From Candidatus Burarchaeum sp. (GTDB lineage: Archaea; Micrarchaeota; Micrarchaeia; Burarchaeales; Burarchaeaceae): a stretch of 25,500 nt of DNA. Position numbers and translations under genes: made by a program. Location of the stretch: positions 1 through 25,500 of the forward strand of contig JAUSNF010000014.1 of assembly GCA_030646255.1 (NCBI GenBank). The letters are read 5' to 3'. Shown piece by piece: positions 1,886 to 10,449 of this stretch (positions within the stretch are counted from its first letter, which is position 1; every line of letters begins with the position of its first letter). The notes under the pieces were generated by a model, which ran no database searches, was not told the origin of the DNA, and saw only the letters and a list, made by a program, of their open reading frames with translations.

Positions 1886-2179
1886 TGGATCAGGCCAGCC
1901 GCCAATCCTAAGACAGCTAGGAAGCCGATCCAGGCGAGAAGATTTTTAATGTCTTCCGTGACCTCACCTCCCCGCATAATTCGCCCGTTCAGGTACCTTT
2001 TTAAAGAGAAGCTGAGTAAGCATATTGCCGATATGTTACTGCCTTCCGAACCGGGCTTGTTTGCGGATTTTTGTCCGAAAGGTTTGACTTCTCCTTATAA
2101 ACTAGACCTATCAAATTACTTCTTAATAAATTTTTTGTTTTGCAATGCAATTGGTTGAACTGCTGGACGGGGCGATTAA

Positions 2180-4927
2180 GTGGCCGAAATCACGAAAGAA
2201 GAAGCCAAACAAAAAGTAGCTGAACTACTTGAGGACTGGCGCCGCGAACATCCACAAGGCCCGCCTAGAACGTTTAATGAGGAGAATACTAAACAGTGGA
2301 TTGACGAACTATTTCACCGACTCGGCTGGAATCTTCGGACAGACTTGTCGAAAGAAGAAAGAAGTGGGAGGCGAAAGCGCGTCGATTACGCCTTCAAGAT
2401 AGAAGGTACTGTTCAGTTTCTGCTAGAGGCCAAGAAACCCAGCGAGAACCTTGATGATCATATCGATCAGGCAGTAGAATATGGCTACCAGAACAGCAAG
2501 AAATGGGTTGTTTTGACTAATTTTGAGGAAATACGGATATACAACTCAGAATACTGGAAGGAGGCAGAACAAACGAGGCGCCTTGTTACGCCGTTGAAGA
2601 TCACAGACTTCCTTACGCGCTTTGACGATCTGTGGCTTCTGAGCAAACCGGCCTTCGAAGAGCGACTAATTGAGAAAATAGCTGCACAGTATGGAAAGGC
2701 AAAGCCAAAGGAGCCGATAACTAAGATATTGTCTGATGATATGGAGAGGTGGAGGAAACTGCTTACGAAAGGCATAAGCGAGCACAGAAATCTTAACAAA
2801 ATACCTTCTGAGCCAGAGCAGGCAGAGGAATACATAGATGAAATGGTGCAGCGCATTCTTGATAGGATTTTGTTCATTCGTGTTGCAGAGGATCGGGGGA
2901 TTGAAGAACCAGTACTGGAGAACGCGCTAAGGAATTGGCAAGTAGACAAAAGCAAACCGCTGTCTGAATATCTGCGCCATGTTTTTAGAAAGATGGACGA
3001 CATTTATAACAGCGGCATTTTCCGAGAGCATGAGTCTGAGAAGCTAACCATAGATAATGAGAGTTACAGGCAAATCATAGATGAAAGTTACAAGAGCCCC
3101 ACTGGCCTGAAATACAATTTTGACGCGATTGATGCAGACATACTTGGATGTGTTTATGAGCAATATCTGAGCATTCTACTCAAAAAGACAGCTAAACGCA
3201 CGTCCTTGAAGGCGAGCAAAGGAAAAAGAAAGGAACAGGGAATCTACTACACGCCCACGTACATTGTAGATTACATAGTCAAAAACGCCCTTGGCGAAAT
3301 GCTGAAAGACAAGAAGCCGGAGGAAGTAGCGAGGCTGAAGGTGCTGGATCCTACTTGTGGCTCTGGTTCGTTTTTGATAAAAGCGTTTGACGAGATTAAG
3401 AGCTACTACAAGAACCAAAAGGGTCAGCAGAAGTTGAATGTGGACTCTCAAATACTTACACAGAATATTTACGGTGTAGATTTGGACTCAAAGGCGGTTG
3501 AAATAGCACGGCTCAATCTGCTTCTGAAGGCAGCTGAAACCAAACATAAATTGCCTGAATTAAACAATAATCTCAAGCAAGGAAATAGTTTTATTGAAAG
3601 TGAAGCTATCGCCGGAGACAAAGCGTTCAAATGGGAAAAACAATTTGCCAGTGTGTTTACAGATGGCCGCTTTGATGTAATTATTGGCAATCCACCCTAT
3701 GTTCACCAAAAAGGCGAGAAAGACGCTCCGAAAATTTCTTATTTGGAACGAGAATACTACCGCCAAAACTACACTTCAGTATATTCAAACGAAGTTAAAA
3801 CTAGAGGTGGGATAAAACTAAACTTGTTTGTGCCATATGTGGAACGAACAATAAGTCTTCTGAAGCCTATGGGTTTTCTCGGTTTCATAGTTCACAAAAA
3901 CGTTCTGAAAGTTGAATCATATAAACTACTTAGAAAATATATACTCGACAACTGCAGCATAGAACAAATAGTGGATTTGGGGGCTGGCGTTTTTTCAGAG
4001 GTAACTGGAGAAACCGTAATAATGATTCTAAAAAAGGAACCGAATTCTTCAAAGAGAAATGGCCACGAAATAAAGATAAGATATGGCCTTACGAATCCTG
4101 CCGATCTTCTTAACAATAAAGGCAAGACGACGCACCTAAAGCAAGAAAATTTTCAGCATTCTGTTGACCATATGTTTGCAATATATGTTGATGAGCGGGT
4201 AGAGTCGTTGAAAAATAAGCTATCAGTTAAATCGAAAAAATTAGACGAAGTAGCTAGAATAGTGTCATTTGGGCTTAACACCAAAGACAATAAAAAATAT
4301 CTTTCATTTGAAAAGTTAAACGGCGCTTACAAGCCCGTTGTGCTTGGCAGAGATGTTGGAAAATACGTCCTTAGAACACGAAACCGATTCGTGCTTTACG
4401 AAAGCAAAGTATTGGATAGAGTTGGAGATTTGGAGGCATTTAATAGCCCAGAAAAACTAATTTTTCAGAGAATAGGTTCTGGACTTATTGGAGTTTATGA
4501 TGACGAAAGATTCTATTGTTTTAACTCCACAAATATGATTCTCCCAAAACAAACTATTTTACAAAATCAAATTAAGCTAAAATATTTGCTAGGAATTTTG
4601 AATTCCAAATTAATGAACTATTACTATCGGGCTGTTTTCTCTACAGAATCAAGCCTTACAGTTAATGTAACGCAAGGATACCTTAGTCAACTACCAATAA
4701 AAATGGTCTCTGAACAAGAACAAGAACCAGTCATAAAGCTGGTTGACAAAATACTCGCCCTTAATCGCCGGCTCTTTGAGATCGGTAGCAAGAAAACAGA
4801 CGAGCGGGCGGAGGTCGAGGCAGAGATACAAAAAAGCGACGCAGAGATAGATGATCTTGTCTACAAACTTTATGGCCTTACGGAAGAAGAAAGGAAAATG
4901 GTTGAAAAGAACACTACTTCGGATTAA
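2180..4927 (+). CDS. Type IIL/IIG restriction-modification fusion enzyme (MmeI/Eco57I-like). It has an N-terminal PD-(D/E)xK nuclease, a gamma-class N6-adenine methyltransferase and a TaqI_C-like target-recognition domain.
   Basis: The 915-aa protein is close to MmeI in length (919 aa). Its N-terminus has D...EAK ('VDYAFK...LLEAKKP'). It has the 'YYTPTYIV' (HYT-like) motif, SAM motif I 'VLDPTCGSGSFL', and catalytic motif IV 'IIGNPPYV'. The C-terminal 'LLGILNSKLMNYYYRAVF' is TaqI_C-like. The gene is visibly AT-richer than the flanking genes. Confidence 0.8.
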   Translation: MAEITKEEAKQKVAELLEDWRREHPQGPPRTFNEENTKQWIDELFHRLGWNLRTDLSKEERSGRRKRVDYAFKIEGTVQFLLEAKKPSENLDDHIDQAVEYGYQNSKKWVVLTNFEEIRIYNSEYWKEAEQTRRLVTPLKITDFLTRFDDLWLLSKPAFEERLIEKIAAQYGKAKPKEPITKILSDDMERWRKLLTKGISEHRNLNKIPSEPEQAEEYIDEMVQRILDRILFIRVAEDRGIEEPVLENALRNWQVDKSKPLSEYLRHVFRKMDDIYNSGIFREHESEKLTIDNESYRQIIDESYKSPTGLKYNFDAIDADILGCVYEQYLSILLKKTAKRTSLKASKGKRKEQGIYYTPTYIVDYIVKNALGEMLKDKKPEEVARLKVLDPTCGSGSFLIKAFDEIKSYYKNQKGQQKLNVDSQILTQNIYGVDLDSKAVEIARLNLLLKAAETKHKLPELNNNLKQGNSFIESEAIAGDKAFKWEKQFASVFTDGRFDVIIGNPPYVHQKGEKDAPKISYLEREYYRQNYTSVYSNEVKTRGGIKLNLFVPYVERTISLLKPMGFLGFIVHKNVLKVESYKLLRKYILDNCSIEQIVDLGAGVFSEVTGETVIMILKKEPNSSKRNGHEIKIRYGLTNPADLLNNKGKTTHLKQENFQHSVDHMFAIYVDERVESLKNKLSVKSKKLDEVARIVSFGLNTKDNKKYLSFEKLNGAYKPVVLGRDVGKYVLRTRNRFVLYESKVLDRVGDLEAFNSPEKLIFQRIGSGLIGVYDDERFYCFNSTNMILPKQTILQNQIKLKYLLGILNSKLMNYYYRAVFSTESSLTVNVTQGYLSQLPIKMVSEQEQEPVIKLVDKILALNRRLFEIGSKKTDERAEVEAEIQKSDAEIDDLVYKLYGLTEEERKMVEKNTTSD

Positions 4928-5765
4928 GAAAGTGCTTTTCGATGTGAATTATTTGTGTTTTCGGAATGACAAGCTCCGTAGGATGAGCCGTCAAGTTGTC
5001 AGGTAATCCTTTCGTAGCATCTACATAAAAAGAGCGTAGAATAATCTCTGTTTTCGTTTCAGTTCTAAGATATCCGATGTACTTTCTGCGAGTAGTTATA
5101 ACCTCATATATGCAGAAGTCGGGAGATAGGAGGAGGGTAATCGCACCGTAATCATAACTAAGTGATACAATTAGTAAGAGTATCGGTGCGCTGAAGAAAA
5201 ATAAAGCCAGAAGTTGTGAGCAGCCATAAAGTGCGCAGTTGTCAGAGAACTTAAGCATAAAAATAAAACAGAAACCTACAAATCCAGAATAGGCAAGAAC
5301 ATTTATGATGAAATAGACTAGTTGATAGAAAAGAACGTTTGGACGCGTATGATTATTCAAGAAGCCAATAATGTCTAAATCAGAAACTTGTTTAAATGCA
5401 GGCAAATCACTGAACTTAGCTTTTAGCTGGCTTTTCATTGATCTCTTGAACTGTTTATCATAAAGAAATCGAAATAGCTGAGCTTGGTTTGTAAATTCCA
5501 AATTACTTTTTTCTTCATACTTAAAGCATACATAATTCTTTGCAGTAAATAGAAGGAGAGTAATGAGACCCAATACACTGACTACCCAAAGAGAATTATA
5601 ATGAGTCTCCAACAAACTAAAAGATAAAAGAAAAATTAAGAACGAGAAAAACAAGGGAACTATCAGAAATGTGAGAACATTCTGACCATATTTCTTTAAA
5701 GCATTGAAACCTTTAGGCGAATATGAAGAAAGACTGTTTAAAAATGCAGATGAAACATCTGGCAT
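4914..5765 (-). CDS. Polytopic membrane protein of unknown function with about 5 to 6 predicted TM helices. It is AT-rich and convergent with the RM gene, overlapping it by 14 bp.
   Basis: Long hydrophobic stretches include 'VLTFLIVPLFFSFLIFLLSFSLL', 'LWVVSVLGLITLLLF', 'VLFYQLVYFIINVLAYSGFVGFCFIFML' and 'LLALFFFSAPILLLIVSL'. Its codon and GC usage matches the neighbouring RM gene, not the GC-rich flanks. Confidence 0.5.
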   Translation of the reverse strand: MPDVSSAFLNSLSSYSPKGFNALKKYGQNVLTFLIVPLFFSFLIFLLSFSLLETHYNSLWVVSVLGLITLLLFTAKNYVCFKYEEKSNLEFTNQAQLFRFLYDKQFKRSMKSQLKAKFSDLPAFKQVSDLDIIGFLNNHTRPNVLFYQLVYFIINVLAYSGFVGFCFIFMLKFSDNCALYGCSQLLALFFFSAPILLLIVSLSYDYGAITLLLSPDFCIYEVITTRRKYIGYLRTETKTEIILRSFYVDATKGLPDNLTAHPTELVIPKTQIIHIEKHFLNPK

Positions 5766-5796
5766 AATTACTTACAACCTCACTCACGTAGTCCCT

Positions 5797-6753
5797 TTAC
5801 ACTCTCCTTTCATTCATCCTTCCCATCCCGGGCCTTCTCGAGAAGCCGGAGTTTCCGCCGGGTCTCGGCGAACCGGTCGGGCCGGACGGGCCGGATGAAC
5901 CGGCGGGGCGGGAGGAAATGGGCGGACGGACTGGAGCGGGCTTGACGGGCGCATCCTGAACGGCCTTGAAGCGAGCTTCGAACTGTTCCTTCAGCTTCGC
6001 GCCTATGGGATTGTGCGTGAAGGCATCGGCCCTGGCGCAGATGACCAGCTTGGTGGACAGCGCACGCGCAATCTTCCCCCGCATGTGCTTGGGCGACATC
6101 GAGATGGAGGCGTGCTGGAATATCAAGCCGTGCTTGGGCGGGTTGGTGCCCTTCTTCAGGTGCTTGAAGAGCGCCTTCTCAGCCCCGAGCACTTGCAGTG
6201 TGGAGGCGGGCATCATGGCCAGCTTGCGCAGAGAGCCTGCGTGCGCTATGAGCTTGGCGGCCAGCTCAGGCCCTGCTAGTAATGAGAGGTTGGGAGCTAT
6301 TTCATTGGCCAGGGAAGCCTGGTATTCCTCGAGCGAGGTGCGGTAGGCATAGAGGTCCTCGAGCTTGTGCGCAAGTTTGGTCATCTCGGCCAGGTCGGCA
6401 GTGCTGAGCTTTGCGCCTATGCTCGTCTTTGCCTTTGACTCCAGCTCCCGCGCCTTCTGCTCCCCTATTATTGGGGCGAGGTCGGATGCCTGTAAATCTT
6501 CACGGTTGATGAGCTGCACCAGCTTGGCAAAGGTGGGGGGCTCGGCTACGCGGAGCTCCGGGAAGTAGACTGCGTACCATTCGGTAAGGGTTTCATAGAG
6601 TAAGTTGGATGCCCTGTTCACCTCGAAGATTGCCTTCACGGTGTGCGAGAGGAGCAGGTCGCGCGCAGCGTGCGCTTCCCTCAGCATTGCCTTGGTCTCT
6701 TCCAGGAAGTCGCGCTTCTTGGCGCGGGGCCTATTCTCCATGCGGTTGTCCAT
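5797..6753 (-). CDS. nop5: Nop5/Nop56/Prp31-family protein (NOSIC plus Nop domain). It is a short form lacking the N-terminal fibrillarin-binding domain, with a Pro/Gly/Ser-rich C-terminal tail.
   Basis: 'LTEWYAVYFPEL' is the NOSIC hallmark and is followed by a Nop-domain core ('LLAGPELAAKLIAHAGSLRKLAMMPASTLQVLGAEKALFKHL'). The protein starts directly at the NOSIC region at about residue 55. A 'TTTAAAA' TATA lies about 27 nt upstream on the minus strand. Confidence 0.75.
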   Translation of the reverse strand: MDNRMENRPRAKKRDFLEETKAMLREAHAARDLLLSHTVKAIFEVNRASNLLYETLTEWYAVYFPELRVAEPPTFAKLVQLINREDLQASDLAPIIGEQKARELESKAKTSIGAKLSTADLAEMTKLAHKLEDLYAYRTSLEEYQASLANEIAPNLSLLAGPELAAKLIAHAGSLRKLAMMPASTLQVLGAEKALFKHLKKGTNPPKHGLIFQHASISMSPKHMRGKIARALSTKLVICARADAFTHNPIGAKLKEQFEARFKAVQDAPVKPAPVRPPISSRPAGSSGPSGPTGSPRPGGNSGFSRRPGMGRMNERRV

Positions 6754-6801
6754 GGACTAGTTTAGGGGGAAGAGGATTTTAAAGGTTTAGAGGGGGCTGG
6801 C

Positions 6802-7209
6802 TTACCTGCGATGATATTTGAACTTCTTGTCATAATCAGGATGCGAGGAGATTTCCAGAATGTTGGCACGTATTTCCCCATCGTCGTTGCCTTTTTCAGT
6901 TGAATATGACATGCGCCATCTGTTGGCTAGTTCAACGTGGAAGAGGTTGGTTGCACCGTATTTGAGTATGTAAGAGACAGGTATTTTGCCCTTGCCAACT
7001 GATTTTCCGTACTGGAAGTCGGCTGCAATGCGGTCGCATTTGTAGTCTACAGATTTCAGGATTGCCCGGTCGAACTTGGAGGTTGCAGCCGTCTCTTTCA
7101 GGTGTCGGTAGGTCTCGGCTGCTTCGGGAGAAAAACGGACTCTTACAAATCTTTCAGGTCCACTCCGTGGAGTTTCATGTATTTTGCCATCTTGGGGTTG
7201 TACATCCAA
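6802..7209 (-). CDS. RelE/YoeB/ParE-superfamily toxin-like ORF. Homology starts near 7146 and no in-frame ATG or GTG is available. Translation may start at the TTG at 7209, overlapping the upstream gene, or the gene may be a pseudogene.
   Basis: The C-terminal 110 aa are 'VRVRFSPEAAETYRHLKE...GKGKIPVSYILKYGATNLFHVELANRWRMSY...'. This matches RelE/YoeB topology, with an 'i.FS..A..dlk.L'-type N-terminus and a GKGK...RiiY-like core. The six-frame ORF 6802..7506 is an artefactual extension with a low-complexity N-terminal half read through another gene. Confidence 0.4.
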   Translation of the reverse strand: MDVQPQDGKIHETPRSGPERFVRVRFSPEAAETYRHLKETAATSKFDRAILKSVDYKCDRIAADFQYGKSVGKGKIPVSYILKYGATNLFHVELANRWRMSYSTEKGNDDGEIRANILEISSHPDYDKKFKYHRR

Positions 7210-7436
7210 GTTATTCCGCGTGAGCCAAAGGCTATCTTGTTGCTTCTGTCCAGGTAGTCGAGTATGACCATCAGCGTGTTGTGGTTCACCTGCTTTGGCA
7301 GGCACCTCTTGAGTTGGGCTACCGTGATGACGCTTTCGTCCATTTTGGTCAGCACCTTCTCCACCATCAGAATCGTGTTCAGCGTGGGCGAGTGCGCCAC
7401 CTCGTATGTCGGAGTTGCAGATGCCAAAGTAATCAC
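7143..7436 (-). CDS. Small hypothetical protein immediately upstream of the RelE-like ORF. It may be its antitoxin or a wHTH regulator.
   Basis: The 97-aa ORF ends with TAA at 7143-7145, one codon from where toxin homology begins in the +1 frame. The listed start is GTG, inside a GGTGA motif. TTG at 7427 or the ATG for 'MVEKVL' at 7367 are alternatives. An AT-rich promoter region with 'TTTATAAAC' lies upstream on the minus strand. Confidence 0.35.
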   Translation of the reverse strand: MITLASATPTYEVAHSPTLNTILMVEKVLTKMDESVITVAQLKRCLPKQVNHNTLMVILDYLDRSNKIAFGSRGITWMYNPKMAKYMKLHGVDLKDL

Positions 7437-7493
7437 CTTTTGATACTAGTTGATAATTAATTGATATAAGTTTATAAACGTATGCATCAGTGT

Positions 7494-7892
7494 TCATTTT
7501 ATGCACCCGGCAACTACATCAAGGAATTCACGGGCTCCTTTTACGAAATAGTCGGCATCCTGCAGGGTGAACATCTGCCTGCCATAGTCTGCGCCGCTCT
7601 TGGCGTGCAGGGCGCGGGAGAGGAGGGAGTGGAAATGCTCATGAGTTTTCTCGAGCTTGCCCTGCCTGAGGAGGTCGAGGAAGAGGAAGGGCATGTCGTC
7701 ATGCCTTGTGGCCTTGCGATTGAGGAAGTGTATTGTGAGCGCATCGTTGGCTCTTATTATTGCGTGTATTGCCTCTGCACAGGCTACTGAAGCTGGCGCG
7801 CCAGTCTTGCAGTGCGAGAGCGCGAGCTCGGCTGTGCTGAGCCATTCGCGCGCCTCGCTTAGGGCTTTTTCCGCAGTGTCGGTTTTGCTCAT
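7494..7892 (-). CDS. HEPN-domain protein, the putative toxin/RNase partner of the adjacent MNT.
   Basis: The protein is 132 aa and all-helical, with an R-x(n)-H motif ('IRANDALTIHF'). It sits directly downstream of a nucleotidyltransferase gene, which is the classic HEPN-MNT arrangement. The ATG start was verified at 7890-7892. Confidence 0.65.
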   Translation of the reverse strand: MSKTDTAEKALSEAREWLSTAELALSHCKTGAPASVACAEAIHAIIRANDALTIHFLNRKATRHDDMPFLFLDLLRQGKLEKTHEHFHSLLSRALHAKSGADYGRQMFTLQDADYFVKGAREFLDVVAGCIK

Positions 7893-7929
7893 CAGAAGAA
7901 TGGCTGAGAATGGGCTTTTAAAGCGTTGC

Positions 7930-7949
7930 AGGGTGGGGAGCGGGTGACT
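7930..7949. repeat. Left copy of a perfect 20-bp inverted repeat (AGGGTGGGGAGCGGGTGACT) flanking the wHTH-MNT gene.
   Basis: The reverse complement, AGTCACCCGCTCCCCACCCT, occurs at 8537-8556. It was checked base by base. Twenty perfect base pairs would not occur by chance in 25 kb. Confidence 0.85.
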
Positions 7950-8487
7950 ATTTGAGCTGCCTGGTTTTCTTGCCTTTCAGGAATGAAAGGAGCTCGGTGC
8001 GGGAGGTGAAGAGAAGGGGCACGAGCTTGAGGCGCGTGCGCTCGTGGAAGGAGAGAATGAGGGGCTCGGGAGAGTAGGTTTTGGGTGCAAGGAAGGCGAG
8101 GTCGATGTCGCTCTCGGGCTTCTCCTCCCCGCGCGCAGTGCTGCCGAAGAGGTGGGCCTCCTTTATTTCTTTCTCGTTTGCAAGGAGGCGCTTGAGCGTT
8201 GGGAGGCTTACTTGGTGGGAGGAAGGAAAGGAGATGAGTTTGTTAAGACGTGAGAAGAGGGGGCTTTTGCGCAGCTCAATGACGCGCGCCCTGCCTATAG
8301 TGCTTACATCTATCAGGCCGGCACGCCGCCAGAGCTCGACTGCACGCCAGGTTGATGCAAAAGGCACTTTCGCAGTGAGCGAGAGCTCGCGTATAGTGAA
8401 TTTGCGGTTCGGGAAGCGGCGCAGGGTCAGGAGGAGCTCCTGGCTGCCCTTGAAGCGCACAAGGTCTACGAGGTTCATATGATCCAC
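7948..8487 (-). CDS. Winged-HTH plus minimal nucleotidyltransferase (MNT) protein, the putative antitoxin/regulator of the HEPN protein.
   Basis: 'HLFGSTARGEEKPESDIDLAFL' is the GS-x(9-13)-DxD NTase motif. The N-terminal 'FTIRELSLTAKVPFASTWRAVELWRRAGLI' is wHTH-like. The start is GTG at 8487 or ATG at 8478. The TAG stop at 7948-7950 lies inside the left 20-bp inverted repeat. Confidence 0.75.
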   Translation of the reverse strand: MDHMNLVDLVRFKGSQELLLTLRRFPNRKFTIRELSLTAKVPFASTWRAVELWRRAGLIDVSTIGRARVIELRKSPLFSRLNKLISFPSSHQVSLPTLKRLLANEKEIKEAHLFGSTARGEEKPESDIDLAFLAPKTYSPEPLILSFHERTRLKLVPLLFTSRTELLSFLKGKKTRQLK

Positions 8488-8520
8488 TTCTGGATAATAT
8501 GATCCAAAGTTGGATAATAT
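8476..8520 (-). promoter_or_regulatory. Operator-like repeat array overlapping the MNT start. It has 2 copies of ATATGATCCA and 2 copies of TGGATAATAT, which together form the imperfect palindrome TGGATAATATGATCCA.
   Basis: ATATGATCCA is at 8477-8486 and 8497-8506. TGGATAATAT is at 8491-8500 and 8511-8520. Read on the minus strand, a TATA-like TTTATATTATCC lies upstream. Confidence 0.5.
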
Positions 8521-8536
8521 AAAGGTTTCGCCTTCA

Positions 8537-8556
8537 AGTCACCCGCTCCCCACCCT
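8537..8556. repeat. Right copy of the perfect 20-bp inverted repeat flanking the wHTH-MNT gene.
   Basis: AGTCACCCGCTCCCCACCCT is the exact reverse complement of 7930-7949. The two copies delimit a 627-bp segment containing only the MNT gene and its 5' region. Confidence 0.85.
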
Positions 8557-8601
8557 CCCAGGGTTTATATGCGCAATTGGCGAGCTTTTGACGGGGATGA
8601 A

Positions 8602-8880
8602 ATGAAAATAACTGCGGAAGTTACGAAGCCGGAATTGGATGCGTTGGAACATTTGTGCATATGCATCCCTTTGTGCGAGAAGCATAAGCAGCTGGATCTA
8701 GATGCGCCGCCGAAGGATTGCAAGAAATGCGCCAAGATTGAGAGAGAATGGTGGGGGCATTCATTTGACCTATGGAGCAAGCTTACGACGGCATATCTGA
8801 GGGCGCTGGGAAAACCGCTGTTATGCCAGGATAAGAAAGGACGTTTATATGTTGCGAGGAGATGGGTGAAGAAGAAATAG
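8602..8880 (+). CDS. Small Cys-rich hypothetical protein, possibly zinc-binding.
   Basis: The ORF 8569..8880 contains 'HLCICIPLCEKHK...DCKKCAK'. The likely true start is the internal ATG at 8602 ('MKITAEV'), about 33 nt after the TATA-like GTTTATAT at 8562-8569. There is no recognisable family signature. Confidence 0.3.
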   Translation: MKITAEVTKPELDALEHLCICIPLCEKHKQLDLDAPPKDCKKCAKIEREWWGHSFDLWSKLTTAYLRALGKPLLCQDKKGRLYVARRWVKKK

Positions 8881-8922
8881 GTATTTATATGTTACCATAT
8901 AAGAAGTGTATAGGTGGTTATA

Positions 8923-9168
8923 ATGACTTATACGACTATTCAAGTGGAGAAGGAAACGCGGGAGAAGCTGGCGGACCTGAAGGAGTACAATAGGGAGACT
9001 TATGATGAGATTATCAGGAGGCTGGTGAAGGTGTTTGAAGTTGTGAGGGATGAAGAAGGGGAGCTGACAGAGGAAACTAGGAAGGCAATTGAGGAGGGGC
9101 TGAGGCAAGCTGATGGAAAGAAAGGCATGACCACAAAGCAGCTCCTGAAGAAACTTGGAGTGGAATGA
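8923..9168 (+). CDS. relB: RelB/CopG-like antitoxin, partner of the downstream RelE.
   Basis: The protein is small and acidic ('TIQVEKETREKLADLKEYNRETYDEIIRRLV'). A GGTGG lies 5 nt upstream of the ATG at 8923, and the listed ORF start at 8914 is an upstream GTG. The stop overlaps the RelE start within ATGA. A TATA 'TATTTATAT' is at 8882-8890. Confidence 0.6.
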   Translation: MTYTTIQVEKETREKLADLKEYNRETYDEIIRRLVKVFEVVRDEEGELTEETRKAIEEGLRQADGKKGMTTKQLLKKLGVE

Positions 9169-9422
9169 TGCCTTATGAACTTCTTTGGATGCCGAAGGCG
9201 CTGGATTCACTTAAGGGGCTAGATAATGAGAATATCAAGGGAATAACGAGAAAACTAGAAGAAGCAAGGGAATTTCCAAGGCATTTCTGTTCGAAGCTGA
9301 CAAACTCGCCGGCCAGCACAGTACGAATTGGAGATTACAGGATTTACGCCAGAGTAAAGGAGGCGGAGAAGATTATCGAAGTCGTGTACGTGGAGCACAG
9401 GAAGAAGGCGTACAAACCATAA
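9165..9422 (+). CDS. relE: RelE/ParE-family toxin.
   Basis: The 85-aa protein has 'YELLWMPKALDSLKGLD' and 'VRIGDYRIYARVKEAEKIIEVVYVEHRKKAY', the canonical RelE beta-sheet core and C-terminus. It overlaps the antitoxin by 4 nt. Confidence 0.8.
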   Translation: MMPYELLWMPKALDSLKGLDNENIKGITRKLEEAREFPRHFCSKLTNSPASTVRIGDYRIYARVKEAEKIIEVVYVEHRKKAYKP

Positions 9423-9480
9423 AAACGGATAAAAAGTGTTGTGGCACTAATTACGGCCTAAGGCGTTGTGAGGTTTTCAA

Positions 9481-10449
9481 ATGTCAAGCTTGAATGTTGT
9501 GGTACTGGGCGAGAAGCCTGAGGCTAGGGCAGCTGCGGCTGCAATGCTGGGCAAGAAGGGCTCGGCTGATGACCTGGCTTTCTATCATACGGCTGTGCAG
9601 GGCAAGATTGTGAGCGCGATTGACCCTGCGGCCTATCCTGCGAAGCTGTCGTGCATGATGCAGGCTCTAAATCTGGCTGACCATGCGCTTGTGCTCGCGG
9701 AGGAAGTTACACCGGTGCTGGGCGAGTGCATTGTGGCCCTGAATTTGATGGGGCTGAAGGCTGTTTTTGTCGGTGAGAATGAGCTGATTGGTAAATTGAT
9801 TGAGAATACGGGGCTGAAGGGCAGCAAGGTTTGCGCGAGCGTGGGCGAGGCAAGGGATTATTTGATGGGTTTGGAGAGCGGTGTGGGTGAGGAAGCAGAT
9901 GCCGCTGAGGCTGTTGCACTAATTGACCACTGCTTTGAAGTGAAGGGCATTGGTACTGTGGCATTGGGAATTGTGAGGCAGGGTGTTGTAAGAGTGCATG
10001 ATAAGATGAGGTCTGTGCCGCTGGGCAAGGAACTAGAGGTGAGAAGTATACAGATGAATGACCAGGATGTGAAGGAGGCTCACGCGGGCGACAGGCTGGG
10101 CATTGCGCTGAAGGGTGTGAAGGCTGAGGAGGTTGGAAGGGGCGAGGTTTTCTGCAAGTCGAATGAGGGTGCTGAGCCTGCTAAAATATTCAAGTGCGAG
10201 GTTGCGGCTGTGAAGTTTGCTAAGGCGCCGCTTGAGACTGGTGCGTACCATTTGAGTGCAGGATTGCAGTTTGAGCCTTGTAAGTTAGACTGCCAGGGTG
10301 CTGTGAAGCCGGGCACTTCTGCGCAGGCTAAGATAGGATGCGAGAGGATTATTGCGCTCGAGAAGAAGGGTAGGATGGTGCTGTGCAATTTGAATGCTAA
10401 GGGCGTGAGAGTTTTGGCAGGTGTGAAGCCTGGCGAAATAGTTGTGTAG
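9481..10449 (+). CDS. EF-Tu/aIF2-gamma-like protein with a degenerate (pseudo-GTPase) G domain and an intact EF-Tu domain II beta-barrel.
   Basis: The C-terminal 'IDHCFEVKGIGTVALGIVRQGVVRVHDKM...EVRSIQMNDQDVKEAHAGDRLGIALKGVKAEEVGRGEVFC' is a typical GTP_EFTU_D2. The N-terminus has only remnants of G1 ('VVVLGEKPEARAAAAAMLGKKGS'), G3 ('IDPAAYP' instead of DxPGH) and G4 ('FVGENEL' instead of NKxD). GAGGT lies 8 nt upstream of the ATG. Confidence 0.55.
   Translation: MSSLNVVVLGEKPEARAAAAAMLGKKGSADDLAFYHTAVQGKIVSAIDPAAYPAKLSCMMQALNLADHALVLAEEVTPVLGECIVALNLMGLKAVFVGENELIGKLIENTGLKGSKVCASVGEARDYLMGLESGVGEEADAAEAVALIDHCFEVKGIGTVALGIVRQGVVRVHDKMRSVPLGKELEVRSIQMNDQDVKEAHAGDRLGIALKGVKAEEVGRGEVFCKSNEGAEPAKIFKCEVAAVKFAKAPLETGAYHLSAGLQFEPCKLDCQGAVKPGTSAQAKIGCERIIALEKKGRMVLCNLNAKGVRVLAGVKPGEIVV

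Follow-up and report, generated by a model that had tools for sequence, protein, structure and literature searches.

In the 25,500-nt contig analyzed here in its entirety (the window), the gene for an antitoxin with a winged helix-turn-helix (wHTH) and an MNT domain is bracketed by a perfect 20-bp inverted repeat, directly beside an open reading frame (ORF) for a HEPN-like toxin. The contig belongs to a metagenome-assembled genome (MAG) of Candidatus Burarchaeum sp. (DPANN/Micrarchaeota). A sequence-only reading of this DNA had offered three explanations for the repeat, namely a mobile cassette, an invertible segment and a pair of binding sites for the wHTH domain. Our analysis makes it reasonably probable that the arms are instead two independent, outward-facing copies of a lineage-specific regulatory motif located upstream of promoters, and not the ends of one element. 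The motif recurs before other genes, keeps a fixed spacing to a TATA box, is oriented toward the gene that follows, is conserved in relatives and has a characteristic gene context.

The left arm, AGGGTGGGGAGCGGGTGACT on the plus strand (7930-7949), has its exact reverse complement in the right arm (8537-8556), with a 20/20 match, and together they delimit a 627-bp unit, as originally described. Read outward, either arm is AGTCACCCGCTCCCCACCCT, on the minus strand for the left arm and on the plus strand for the right. The repeat had been judged to be beyond chance, and the calculations agree: none of 100 dinucleotide shuffles gave two matches, and approximately 2.6e-4 exact 20-nt inverted pairs are expected in the window from its base composition. 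No further copy of the 20-mer was found in the 25.5-kb window at up to 5 mismatches, and raising the limit to 6 added only two 6-mismatch sites, both within coding sequence and with no TATA box after them. With a position weight matrix (PWM) for the motif, the left arm scored 28 bits, while window sites other than the two arms all scored 13.1 bits or less. The gene content was also correctly read: the wHTH-MNT ORF (7948-8478, or to 8487 from an alternative start; minus strand) is the only gene between the arms, its TAG stop codon (7948-7950) has two bases in the left arm, and the HEPN-like ORF lies just outside. The repeat continues imperfectly outward to 39 nt (7911-7949 and 8537-8575, 82% identity), because the outer sides of the arms are the spacer and TATA box of two promoters.

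Both arms have the same relation to the gene that they face. On the minus strand, the left arm (...CCCT) is followed by GCAACGC, the TATA box TTTAAAAG, 22 nt and the HEPN ATG; on the plus strand, the right arm (...CCCT) is followed by CCCAGGG, the TATA box TTTATATG, 30 nt and the ATG at 8602 of a small Cys-rich ORF, a start codon matched by an independent gene call (a 92-aa gene). The distance from TATA box to ATG suggests that the HEPN mRNA is leaderless. The left copy would be part of a dedicated promoter for the HEPN toxin. The right copy would belong to the divergent promoter of the Cys-rich ORF, from whose TATA box it is separated by 7 nt, versus 12 nt from that of the MNT gene. In a homologue search, the Cys-rich ORF was an orphan save for a partial orthologue in a relative (locus L017), which has an identical layout, motif included.

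Two structural candidates were considered and rejected. An RNA stem joining both arms appears to be incompatible with the geometry. Since the right arm is placed upstream of the TATA box of MNT, the two arms should not be on one transcript. An Rfam search of 6700-9600 at a permissive E-value returned nothing relevant, so no known RNA explains the arms. The other candidate was a G-quadruplex or i-motif. Four G-runs are present in the right arm and its flank; however, they are missing in the left arm and in most variants (e.g. AGTCACTCGCACCCTACTCT), and the structure is therefore not a conserved property.

The 20-mer or genome-specific variants of it were found as single copies at 16 further places, in metagenome contigs and in relatives of the Burarchaeum MAG. 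An exact-match scan of metagenome contigs gave nine places, of which three (L002, L005 and L007; L005 and L007 are the same sequence) were chance matches with no common context. Each of the other six (L003, L004, L006, L008, L009 and L010) carries one copy, with a TATA box after a spacer of 7 nt that is rich in G+C. The genes that follow are a 90-aa ORF (orthologous in L004 and L009), a DUF5678 gene with a retropepsin-like gene, HerA, an AbrB/MazE antitoxin and a truncated ORF. A scan of representative genomes, in which the source genome is absent, gave one chance match in an actinobacterial MAG (L001), and a scan of viral contigs with a degenerate motif gave none. Each of the six short metagenome contigs has the motif within 80-315 nt of one end, which may reflect assemblies broken by the repeated motif or mere contig shortness. 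In L009 (positions ~830-885), an insertion of approximately 53 nt with hairpin potential (ggccctctttctcctgctggagaaaggggccc...) separates the motif and TATA box from the start of the 90-aa ORF; it is absent from the orthologous L004.

Orthologous neighbourhoods in relatives were retrieved via homologues of Nop5, which is encoded near the arms, and those of L013, L014, L015/L016 and L017 contained 10 further copies or variants, each with a TATA box after it. In L013, where Nop5 shares 95% identity, divergent small genes are preceded by two copies placed back to back at a distance of 38 nt, one of them exact and the other with 4 mismatches. Ca. Burarchaeum australiense (L014) has two variants, one before an N6/N4 DNA methylase gene and the other before the orthologue of a RelE-like pair in the window. 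One copy precedes HicB in L015/L016, and three copies in L017 precede the orthologue of the Cys-rich ORF, HicBA and a RelE-like pair. In L018 and L019, there are neither toxin-antitoxin (TA) genes beside Nop5 nor a copy of the motif. The motif is thus present before several non-homologous genes and conserved in related genomes. The genes that follow it are mostly of TA or defence type: HEPN, HicB (twice), the AbrB/MazE antitoxin, DUF5678 with the retropepsin-like gene, the RelE-like pair, the N6/N4 DNA methylase and HerA.

The window HEPN promoter itself has orthologous counterparts at L014 +9188, L017 +1431 and L015 +9493. In L014 and L017, MNT and HEPN are absent, the orthologous motif-TATA promoter is kept, and there is no clean empty site. 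In L015/L016 (9417-9932), directly upstream of Nop5, a C-terminal remnant of MNT (last ~26 codons, 81% aa identity), whose TAG stop overlaps the diverged motif AGTCATCCGCATCCTGCTCC, precedes a TATA box and a HEPN gene that carries a frameshift (75% aa identity). This order of MNT stop, motif, TATA box and HEPN indicates that the arrangement is older than the split of these lineages, and not a recent insertion. The HEPN-MNT module of L015/L016 is decaying, yet the intergenic motif and TATA box are still recognizable.

These results bear on two of the earlier explanations. A miniature inverted-repeat transposable element (MITE), or another transposon with terminal inverted repeats, that carried the antitoxin gene would account for a 20/20 repeat around a single gene. 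However, we consider this largely refuted, with only a slight chance of being correct. No target-site duplication of 2-9 bp was present at the ends of the 20-nt arms (GCGTTGC and CCCAGGG), and the flanks of the 39-nt arms (GCTGAGAA and ATTGGCGA) had no common direct repeat, in line with the failure of a search by eye to find a convincing one. No integrase, invertase, recombinase or transposase was detected when the larger candidate ORFs of the contig were scanned with Pfam. Further copies of the 20-mer and 627-bp paralogues had been thought of as signs of mobility; copies exist as solo arms, with the TATA box always just outside the supposed element, and collections of genomes, metagenomes and viral sequences gave no second 627-bp unit. 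Finally, the orthologous sites that lack MNT (L014 and L017) are not empty but keep an arm.

Inversion of the 587-bp interior by a site-specific recombinase, which would switch which promoter reads which gene, is also very improbable. Perfect inverted repeats around a promoter-containing segment are what such a system would need, and the arms of L013, 38 nt apart, have a fragment of the palindrome region between them. Yet the segment has one orientation in two assemblies, the NCBI MAG contig and the Logan assembly of SRR13727526, which is 100% identical to it over 5204-9477 (4,274 nt). No recombinase gene was found among the larger candidate ORFs of the contig, single arms are common elsewhere, and a flipped MNT gene would face against the two outward promoters, in antisense, without an evident benefit. 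The 38-nt spacer of L013 is near-palindromic, and its orientation relative to the window is therefore uninformative.

The structure of the motif and its geometry carry the argument for a promoter element. The consensus, AGTCACYCGCNCCCCACYCT, covers approximately 20 bp and contains two CACYC half-sites; in the 20-mer, these are CACCC at motif positions 4-8 and 15-19, 11 nt apart, or one helical turn, and form a direct repeat with no dyad. A TATA box begins 7-9 nt past the motif in 18 of 18 instances, and the distance from TATA box to start codon is 29-43 nt in the 10 instances in which a gene follows directly. Such a distance is the geometry of working archaeal promoters. A PWM scan of approximately 70 kb of lineage DNA was bimodal: all 12 sites of at least 20 bits had a TATA box 7-9 nt after them, while all remaining sites scored 14.2 bits or less, were as frequent as in shuffled sequence, and had a TATA box in no case.

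With its end 7-8 nt before the TATA box, the motif occupies about -58 to -39, directly upstream of the position of the B recognition element (BRE). In the 6 nt before the TATA box, motif promoters had 1.06 A versus 2.6 A in 15 other, hand-picked promoters of the same genomes (Mann-Whitney p=7e-4), and they were richer in G+C (p=5e-6). A BRE position so poor in A and rich in G+C indicates a weak BRE. In Pyrococcus, the BRE consensus is VRAAA, and TFB-RF1 activates promoters with weak BREs from a site just upstream of the BRE and TATA box (PMC5937170). Together with EarA (PMC5512572), it establishes that archaeal activators bind just upstream of weak BREs, and the position of our motif, combined with a weak BRE, fits a mechanism of the TFB-RF1/EarA type.

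We infer that the motif-TATA units are active promoters, that a protein binds the motif, and that the regulation is perhaps positive. A putative trans-acting factor would bind the motif and govern the recruitment of TBP and TFB where the BRE is weak, and activation by recruitment, similar to that by TFB-RF1, seems the favoured mode. Scattered TA and defence cassettes would in this way be placed under common control, on top of their own autoregulated promoters. Variation among copies within genomes is relevant here. The non-orthologous copies in L017, three in all, share G11/A14/G16, and both copies in L014 have T7, states that are absent from the orthologues in other genomes. Such shared derived states represent concerted change, which could arise because the sites track one trans factor or because sequence is copied between sites; the states common to the L017 copies are as expected if the sites track one trans factor.

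The remaining suggestion of the sequence-only reading was that the wHTH-MNT antitoxin binds both arms, loops the DNA and coordinates its own promoter with that of HEPN. The MNT domain was recognized above Pfam cut-offs (PF18765/PF01909). Pfam assigned no family to the wHTH region alone, and that fold is confirmed only by the structure model. The AlphaFold model (pLDDT 83) has a winged helix (H-H-H-beta hairpin) at the N-terminus, in residues 12-69, linked to the MNT fold, and Foldseek matched the model to the MNT antitoxins 8xeo and 7bxo and to regulators of the ArsR/HlyU type. The HEPN-like protein scored 19.2 bits with Pfam HEPN, below the cut-off of 22, and is 42% identical to the product of the gene that follows an MNT homologue in L012.

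The part of this proposal that placed the arms upstream of promoters stands, since each arm directly precedes a TATA box and one of these belongs to the HEPN promoter. In addition, the predicted ArsR/HlyU-like winged helix is confident, and just 12 nt separate the right arm from the BRE and TATA box of MNT. Paired binding by the wHTH domain does not fare as well, and we regard it as improbable. The right arm belongs mainly to the Cys-rich ORF. Many promoters that carry the motif have no MNT gene close by (L003-L010, L013, L014 and L017), and the motif persists in L015, in which the local MNT is only a remnant. MNT homologues are rare, with only 5 found among 5.8 billion proteins. The three distant ones with readable context (43-48% identity) overlap the HEPN gene by 4 nt, with no spacer, in contrast to the uncoupled window pair with its motif and TATA box in a 55-nt spacer. 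Moreover, the motif is a direct repeat and not a dyad, and two good palindromes already cover the MNT TATA box and start. Because the 20-mer is non-palindromic and palindromes suit an ArsR-like wHTH dimer, the protein is better matched to the palindromes. Operators that overlap the TATA box and start are in the usual position for an autorepressor. Most likely, the wHTH of MNT would repress its own promoter via these two palindromes, and not act through the 20-mer. In L013 (561-638), the 38-nt spacer between the divergent copies contains 1.5 units of the same palindrome, ATGATCCA-N4-TGGATAAT, and no MNT gene is present there, so the palindromes may not be MNT-specific.

The alternative that deserves most weight, although we consider it unlikely, is that the motif and TATA box are a portable cassette boundary or "mobile promoter", the 5' end of units in which TA and defence cassettes reach new sites, copied or recombined there by site-specific recombination, gene conversion or promoter propagation; the arms would then mark the 5' ends of two neighbouring cassettes that were inserted in opposite directions, back to back. 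Several observations point in this direction. L015 and L017 have HicB cassettes in different contexts, whose homology starts exactly at motif base 3. The motif directly precedes HerA in L008, whereas in the near-identical L006 a two-gene DUF5678/retropepsin cassette intervenes, and thus the cargo varies on both sides. The gap between the gene for an EF-Tu-like GTPase and Nop5 holds a different TA set in each relative, with a motif copy before each cassette, and L018 and L019 have neither at this position. The substitutions common to the three L017 copies are a sign of concerted evolution, and half of the cassettes own a second promoter.

Against a cassette boundary, no integrase, recombinase or transposase was found in the contig or the loci examined, and the motif has no internal dyad or partner site. 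Divergence at the genus level has not displaced orthologous copies, as with the HEPN promoter in the window, L014, L017 and L015. The constant 29-43 nt from TATA box to start is needed by a promoter and not by a recombination site, and the conserved block of approximately 20-36 nt is below the minimum of at least 50 nt at 80% identity or more set for mobile promoters (PMC3488235). A boundary of this kind is compatible with a regulatory role and does not exclude one. Somewhat less probable again is a stronger version, in which the 20-mer and TATA box are the portable 5' end or landing site of a DPANN cassette-shuffling system, integron-like or of the "mobile promoter" kind, possibly with a sequence-reading factor that co-evolves with the genome-specific variants. 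Such a system would explain the homology that starts at the motif, the variable cargo on both sides and the concerted changes in each genome; if real, it would supply incoming TA and defence genes with a promoter that is ready-made and under common regulation.

Several points weigh against the motif being a regulatory element upstream of promoters. At approximately half of the instances (L006, L010, L014+, L015 +2953, and L017 +866 and +1431), there is a second TATA box, equipped with an operator of its own, ~60 nt downstream, and the motif-TATA unit there is thus an extra upstream promoter in tandem, not the sole one. The motif is long, non-palindromic and nearly invariant per genome, which is unusual for a protein operator; near-invariance in one genome also fits recent copying or gene conversion. 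The promoters in the BRE comparison included orthologues as well as having been picked by hand. The sample is also biased, since the metagenome places were found by exact match and the loci of relatives are centred on one TA hotspot. At the tandem loci (L014 9188-9300; L017 866-990 and 1431-1571; L015 2953-3060; L006; L010), the palindromic operator at the second TATA box is that of the TA pair, and in the window the palindromic operator of a TA pair, TATCAATTAATTATCAA, lies at 7450-7470 and has orthologues.

The features of the locus are collected in Table 1. The arms sit in a 2.7-kb islet of small TA-type genes that extends from Nop5 (5797-6753, minus strand) to the EF-Tu-domain GTPase gene (9481-10449, plus strand) and contains the RelE-like pair (6802-7436), HEPN and MNT, the orphan Cys-rich ORF (8602-8880) and a DUF7557-ParE pair (8914-9422).

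Table 1. Coordinates of the two motif copies and of the genes and promoter elements around them.
Feature	Position	Strand	Details
Left arm, upstream-motif copy 1	7930..7949	-	AGTCACCCGCTCCCCACCCT, two CACCC half-sites 11 nt apart; overlaps MNT stop by 2 nt
HEPN-promoter TATA box TTTAAAAG	7915..7922	-	7 nt past motif, 30 nt before HEPN ATG
HEPN-like toxin gene, 132 aa, ATG 7892	7494..7892	-	55 nt downstream of MNT stop
wHTH-MNT antitoxin gene, 176 aa from ATG	7948..8478	-	alternative GTG start 8487 (179 aa)
Two tandem palindromic units ATGATCCA-N4-TGGATAAT	8479-8498 and 8499-8518	.	span MNT start region and overlap MNT TATA box; putative operators
MNT core promoter	8516..8531	-	TATA box CTTTATATT 8516-8524; A-rich BRE GCGAAAC 8525-8531
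Right arm, upstream-motif copy 2	8537..8556	+	AGTCACCCGCTCCCCACCCT
Cys-rich-ORF-promoter TATA box TTTATATG	8564..8571	+	7 nt past motif, 38 nt before ATG 8602
Small Cys-rich ORF, 92 aa, orphan	8602..8880	+	downstream of right-arm promoter

Between Nop5 and the EF-Tu-domain GTPase gene lies a hotspot in which the TA cargo differs in each relative. It corresponds to 6802-9422 in the window, where the cargo is the RelE-like pair, HEPN-MNT, the Cys-rich ORF and DUF7557-ParE; to 277-1641 in L013, with a wHTH-like ORF and VapBC; to 9115-10000 in L014, with a RelE-like pair only; and to 150-2365 in L017, with a flavin reductase, HicBA, a RelE-like pair and a MazE fragment. There is no cargo in L018 and L019. 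On the opposite side of Nop5, a low-GC island (window 2000-5800, 36-45% versus ~55%) encodes a 915-aa restriction-modification enzyme of the MmeI/Eco57I type (2180-4927, plus strand). At the same position beside Nop5, L015 has a 914-aa MmeI-like gene and L014 the motif-driven N6/N4 methylase. With defence-type genes beside Nop5 in the window, L015 and L014, both flanks of Nop5 look like variable defence islands. At the start of the contig is a gene (8-1165) for a DNA-binding protein, an archaeal ATPase (PF01637) that also has a DUF234 domain and an HTH of the ArsR type.

To our knowledge, very little is known about how archaea co-regulate TA and defence cassettes or wire them in once acquired, and a shared upstream element would offer a handle on this. 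If our interpretation is correct, a DPANN lineage (Burarchaeales, Micrarchaeota) puts scattered TA and defence genes under one common upstream element, among them the toxin gene of an antitoxin-toxin module, served by a separate promoter within the module. A regulon with its regulator is then predicted, which whole-genome motif scans could find. The locus would also illustrate that a striking inverted repeat can be two outward-facing promoters instead of a mobile element.

The arrangement resembles several known systems in part. Like the attC sites of integron cassette arrays, the motif is a short conserved boundary of small, variable, TA-rich cassettes at one hotspot. Unlike them, it is accompanied by no integrase in the contig scans and has no R''-L''/L'-R' dyad, and the cassettes have their own promoters and lie in both orientations. 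Putative mobile promoters, proposed as a means for wiring in genes after their acquisition (Matus-Garcia et al. 2012, PMC3488235), likewise place closely similar upstream sequence before non-homologous genes, within and across related genomes. However, they span 50-100 nt at 80% identity or more (PMC3488235), whereas here approximately 20 nt plus spacing and TATA box are shared, pairwise alignments of non-orthologous copies span 23-37 nt only, and orthologous copies are stably inherited in place.

In canonical HEPN-MNT modules (type II/VII), such as Shewanella HepT/MntA (PDB 7bxo), the MNT fold is also followed by a HEPN-like gene, with the antitoxin first and operators at the antitoxin promoter. 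The window module differs in that its genes neither overlap nor are coupled, and its 55-nt spacer contains a separate, motif-bearing toxin promoter. The earlier statement that none of the proposed explanations is a described feature of HEPN-MNT systems therefore holds in a narrow sense only: the separate toxin promoter inside an antitoxin-first module is atypical, because modules in this gene order normally run from a single upstream promoter (review, PMC10643148).

The closest parallel is to the activator sites at archaeal promoters with weak BREs, namely those of TFB-RF1 (PF1088) in Pyrococcus, EarA in Methanococcus and Ptr2 in Methanocaldococcus. As in these systems, the element lies directly upstream of the BRE and TATA box and is found at several promoters, the BRE position matches the A-rich consensus poorly, and the location suits recruitment of TFB and TBP. 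The TFB-RF1 site is a short palindrome, TCTG-N5-CAGA, found at two promoters, while ours is a 20-bp direct-repeat motif at many promoters with a TA/defence bias; the comparison is by position only, and no homology is claimed. In the literature that mentions Burarchaeum and in a search on Micrarchaeota promoters, which returned nothing on Micrarchaeota, we found no description of the 20-bp motif. A shared upstream cis-element that defines a regulon is of a known kind, and this instance of such a motif is new. It is of moderate interest for its TA/defence bias in a DPANN archaeon, its dedicated toxin promoter and its genome-specific concerted variants.

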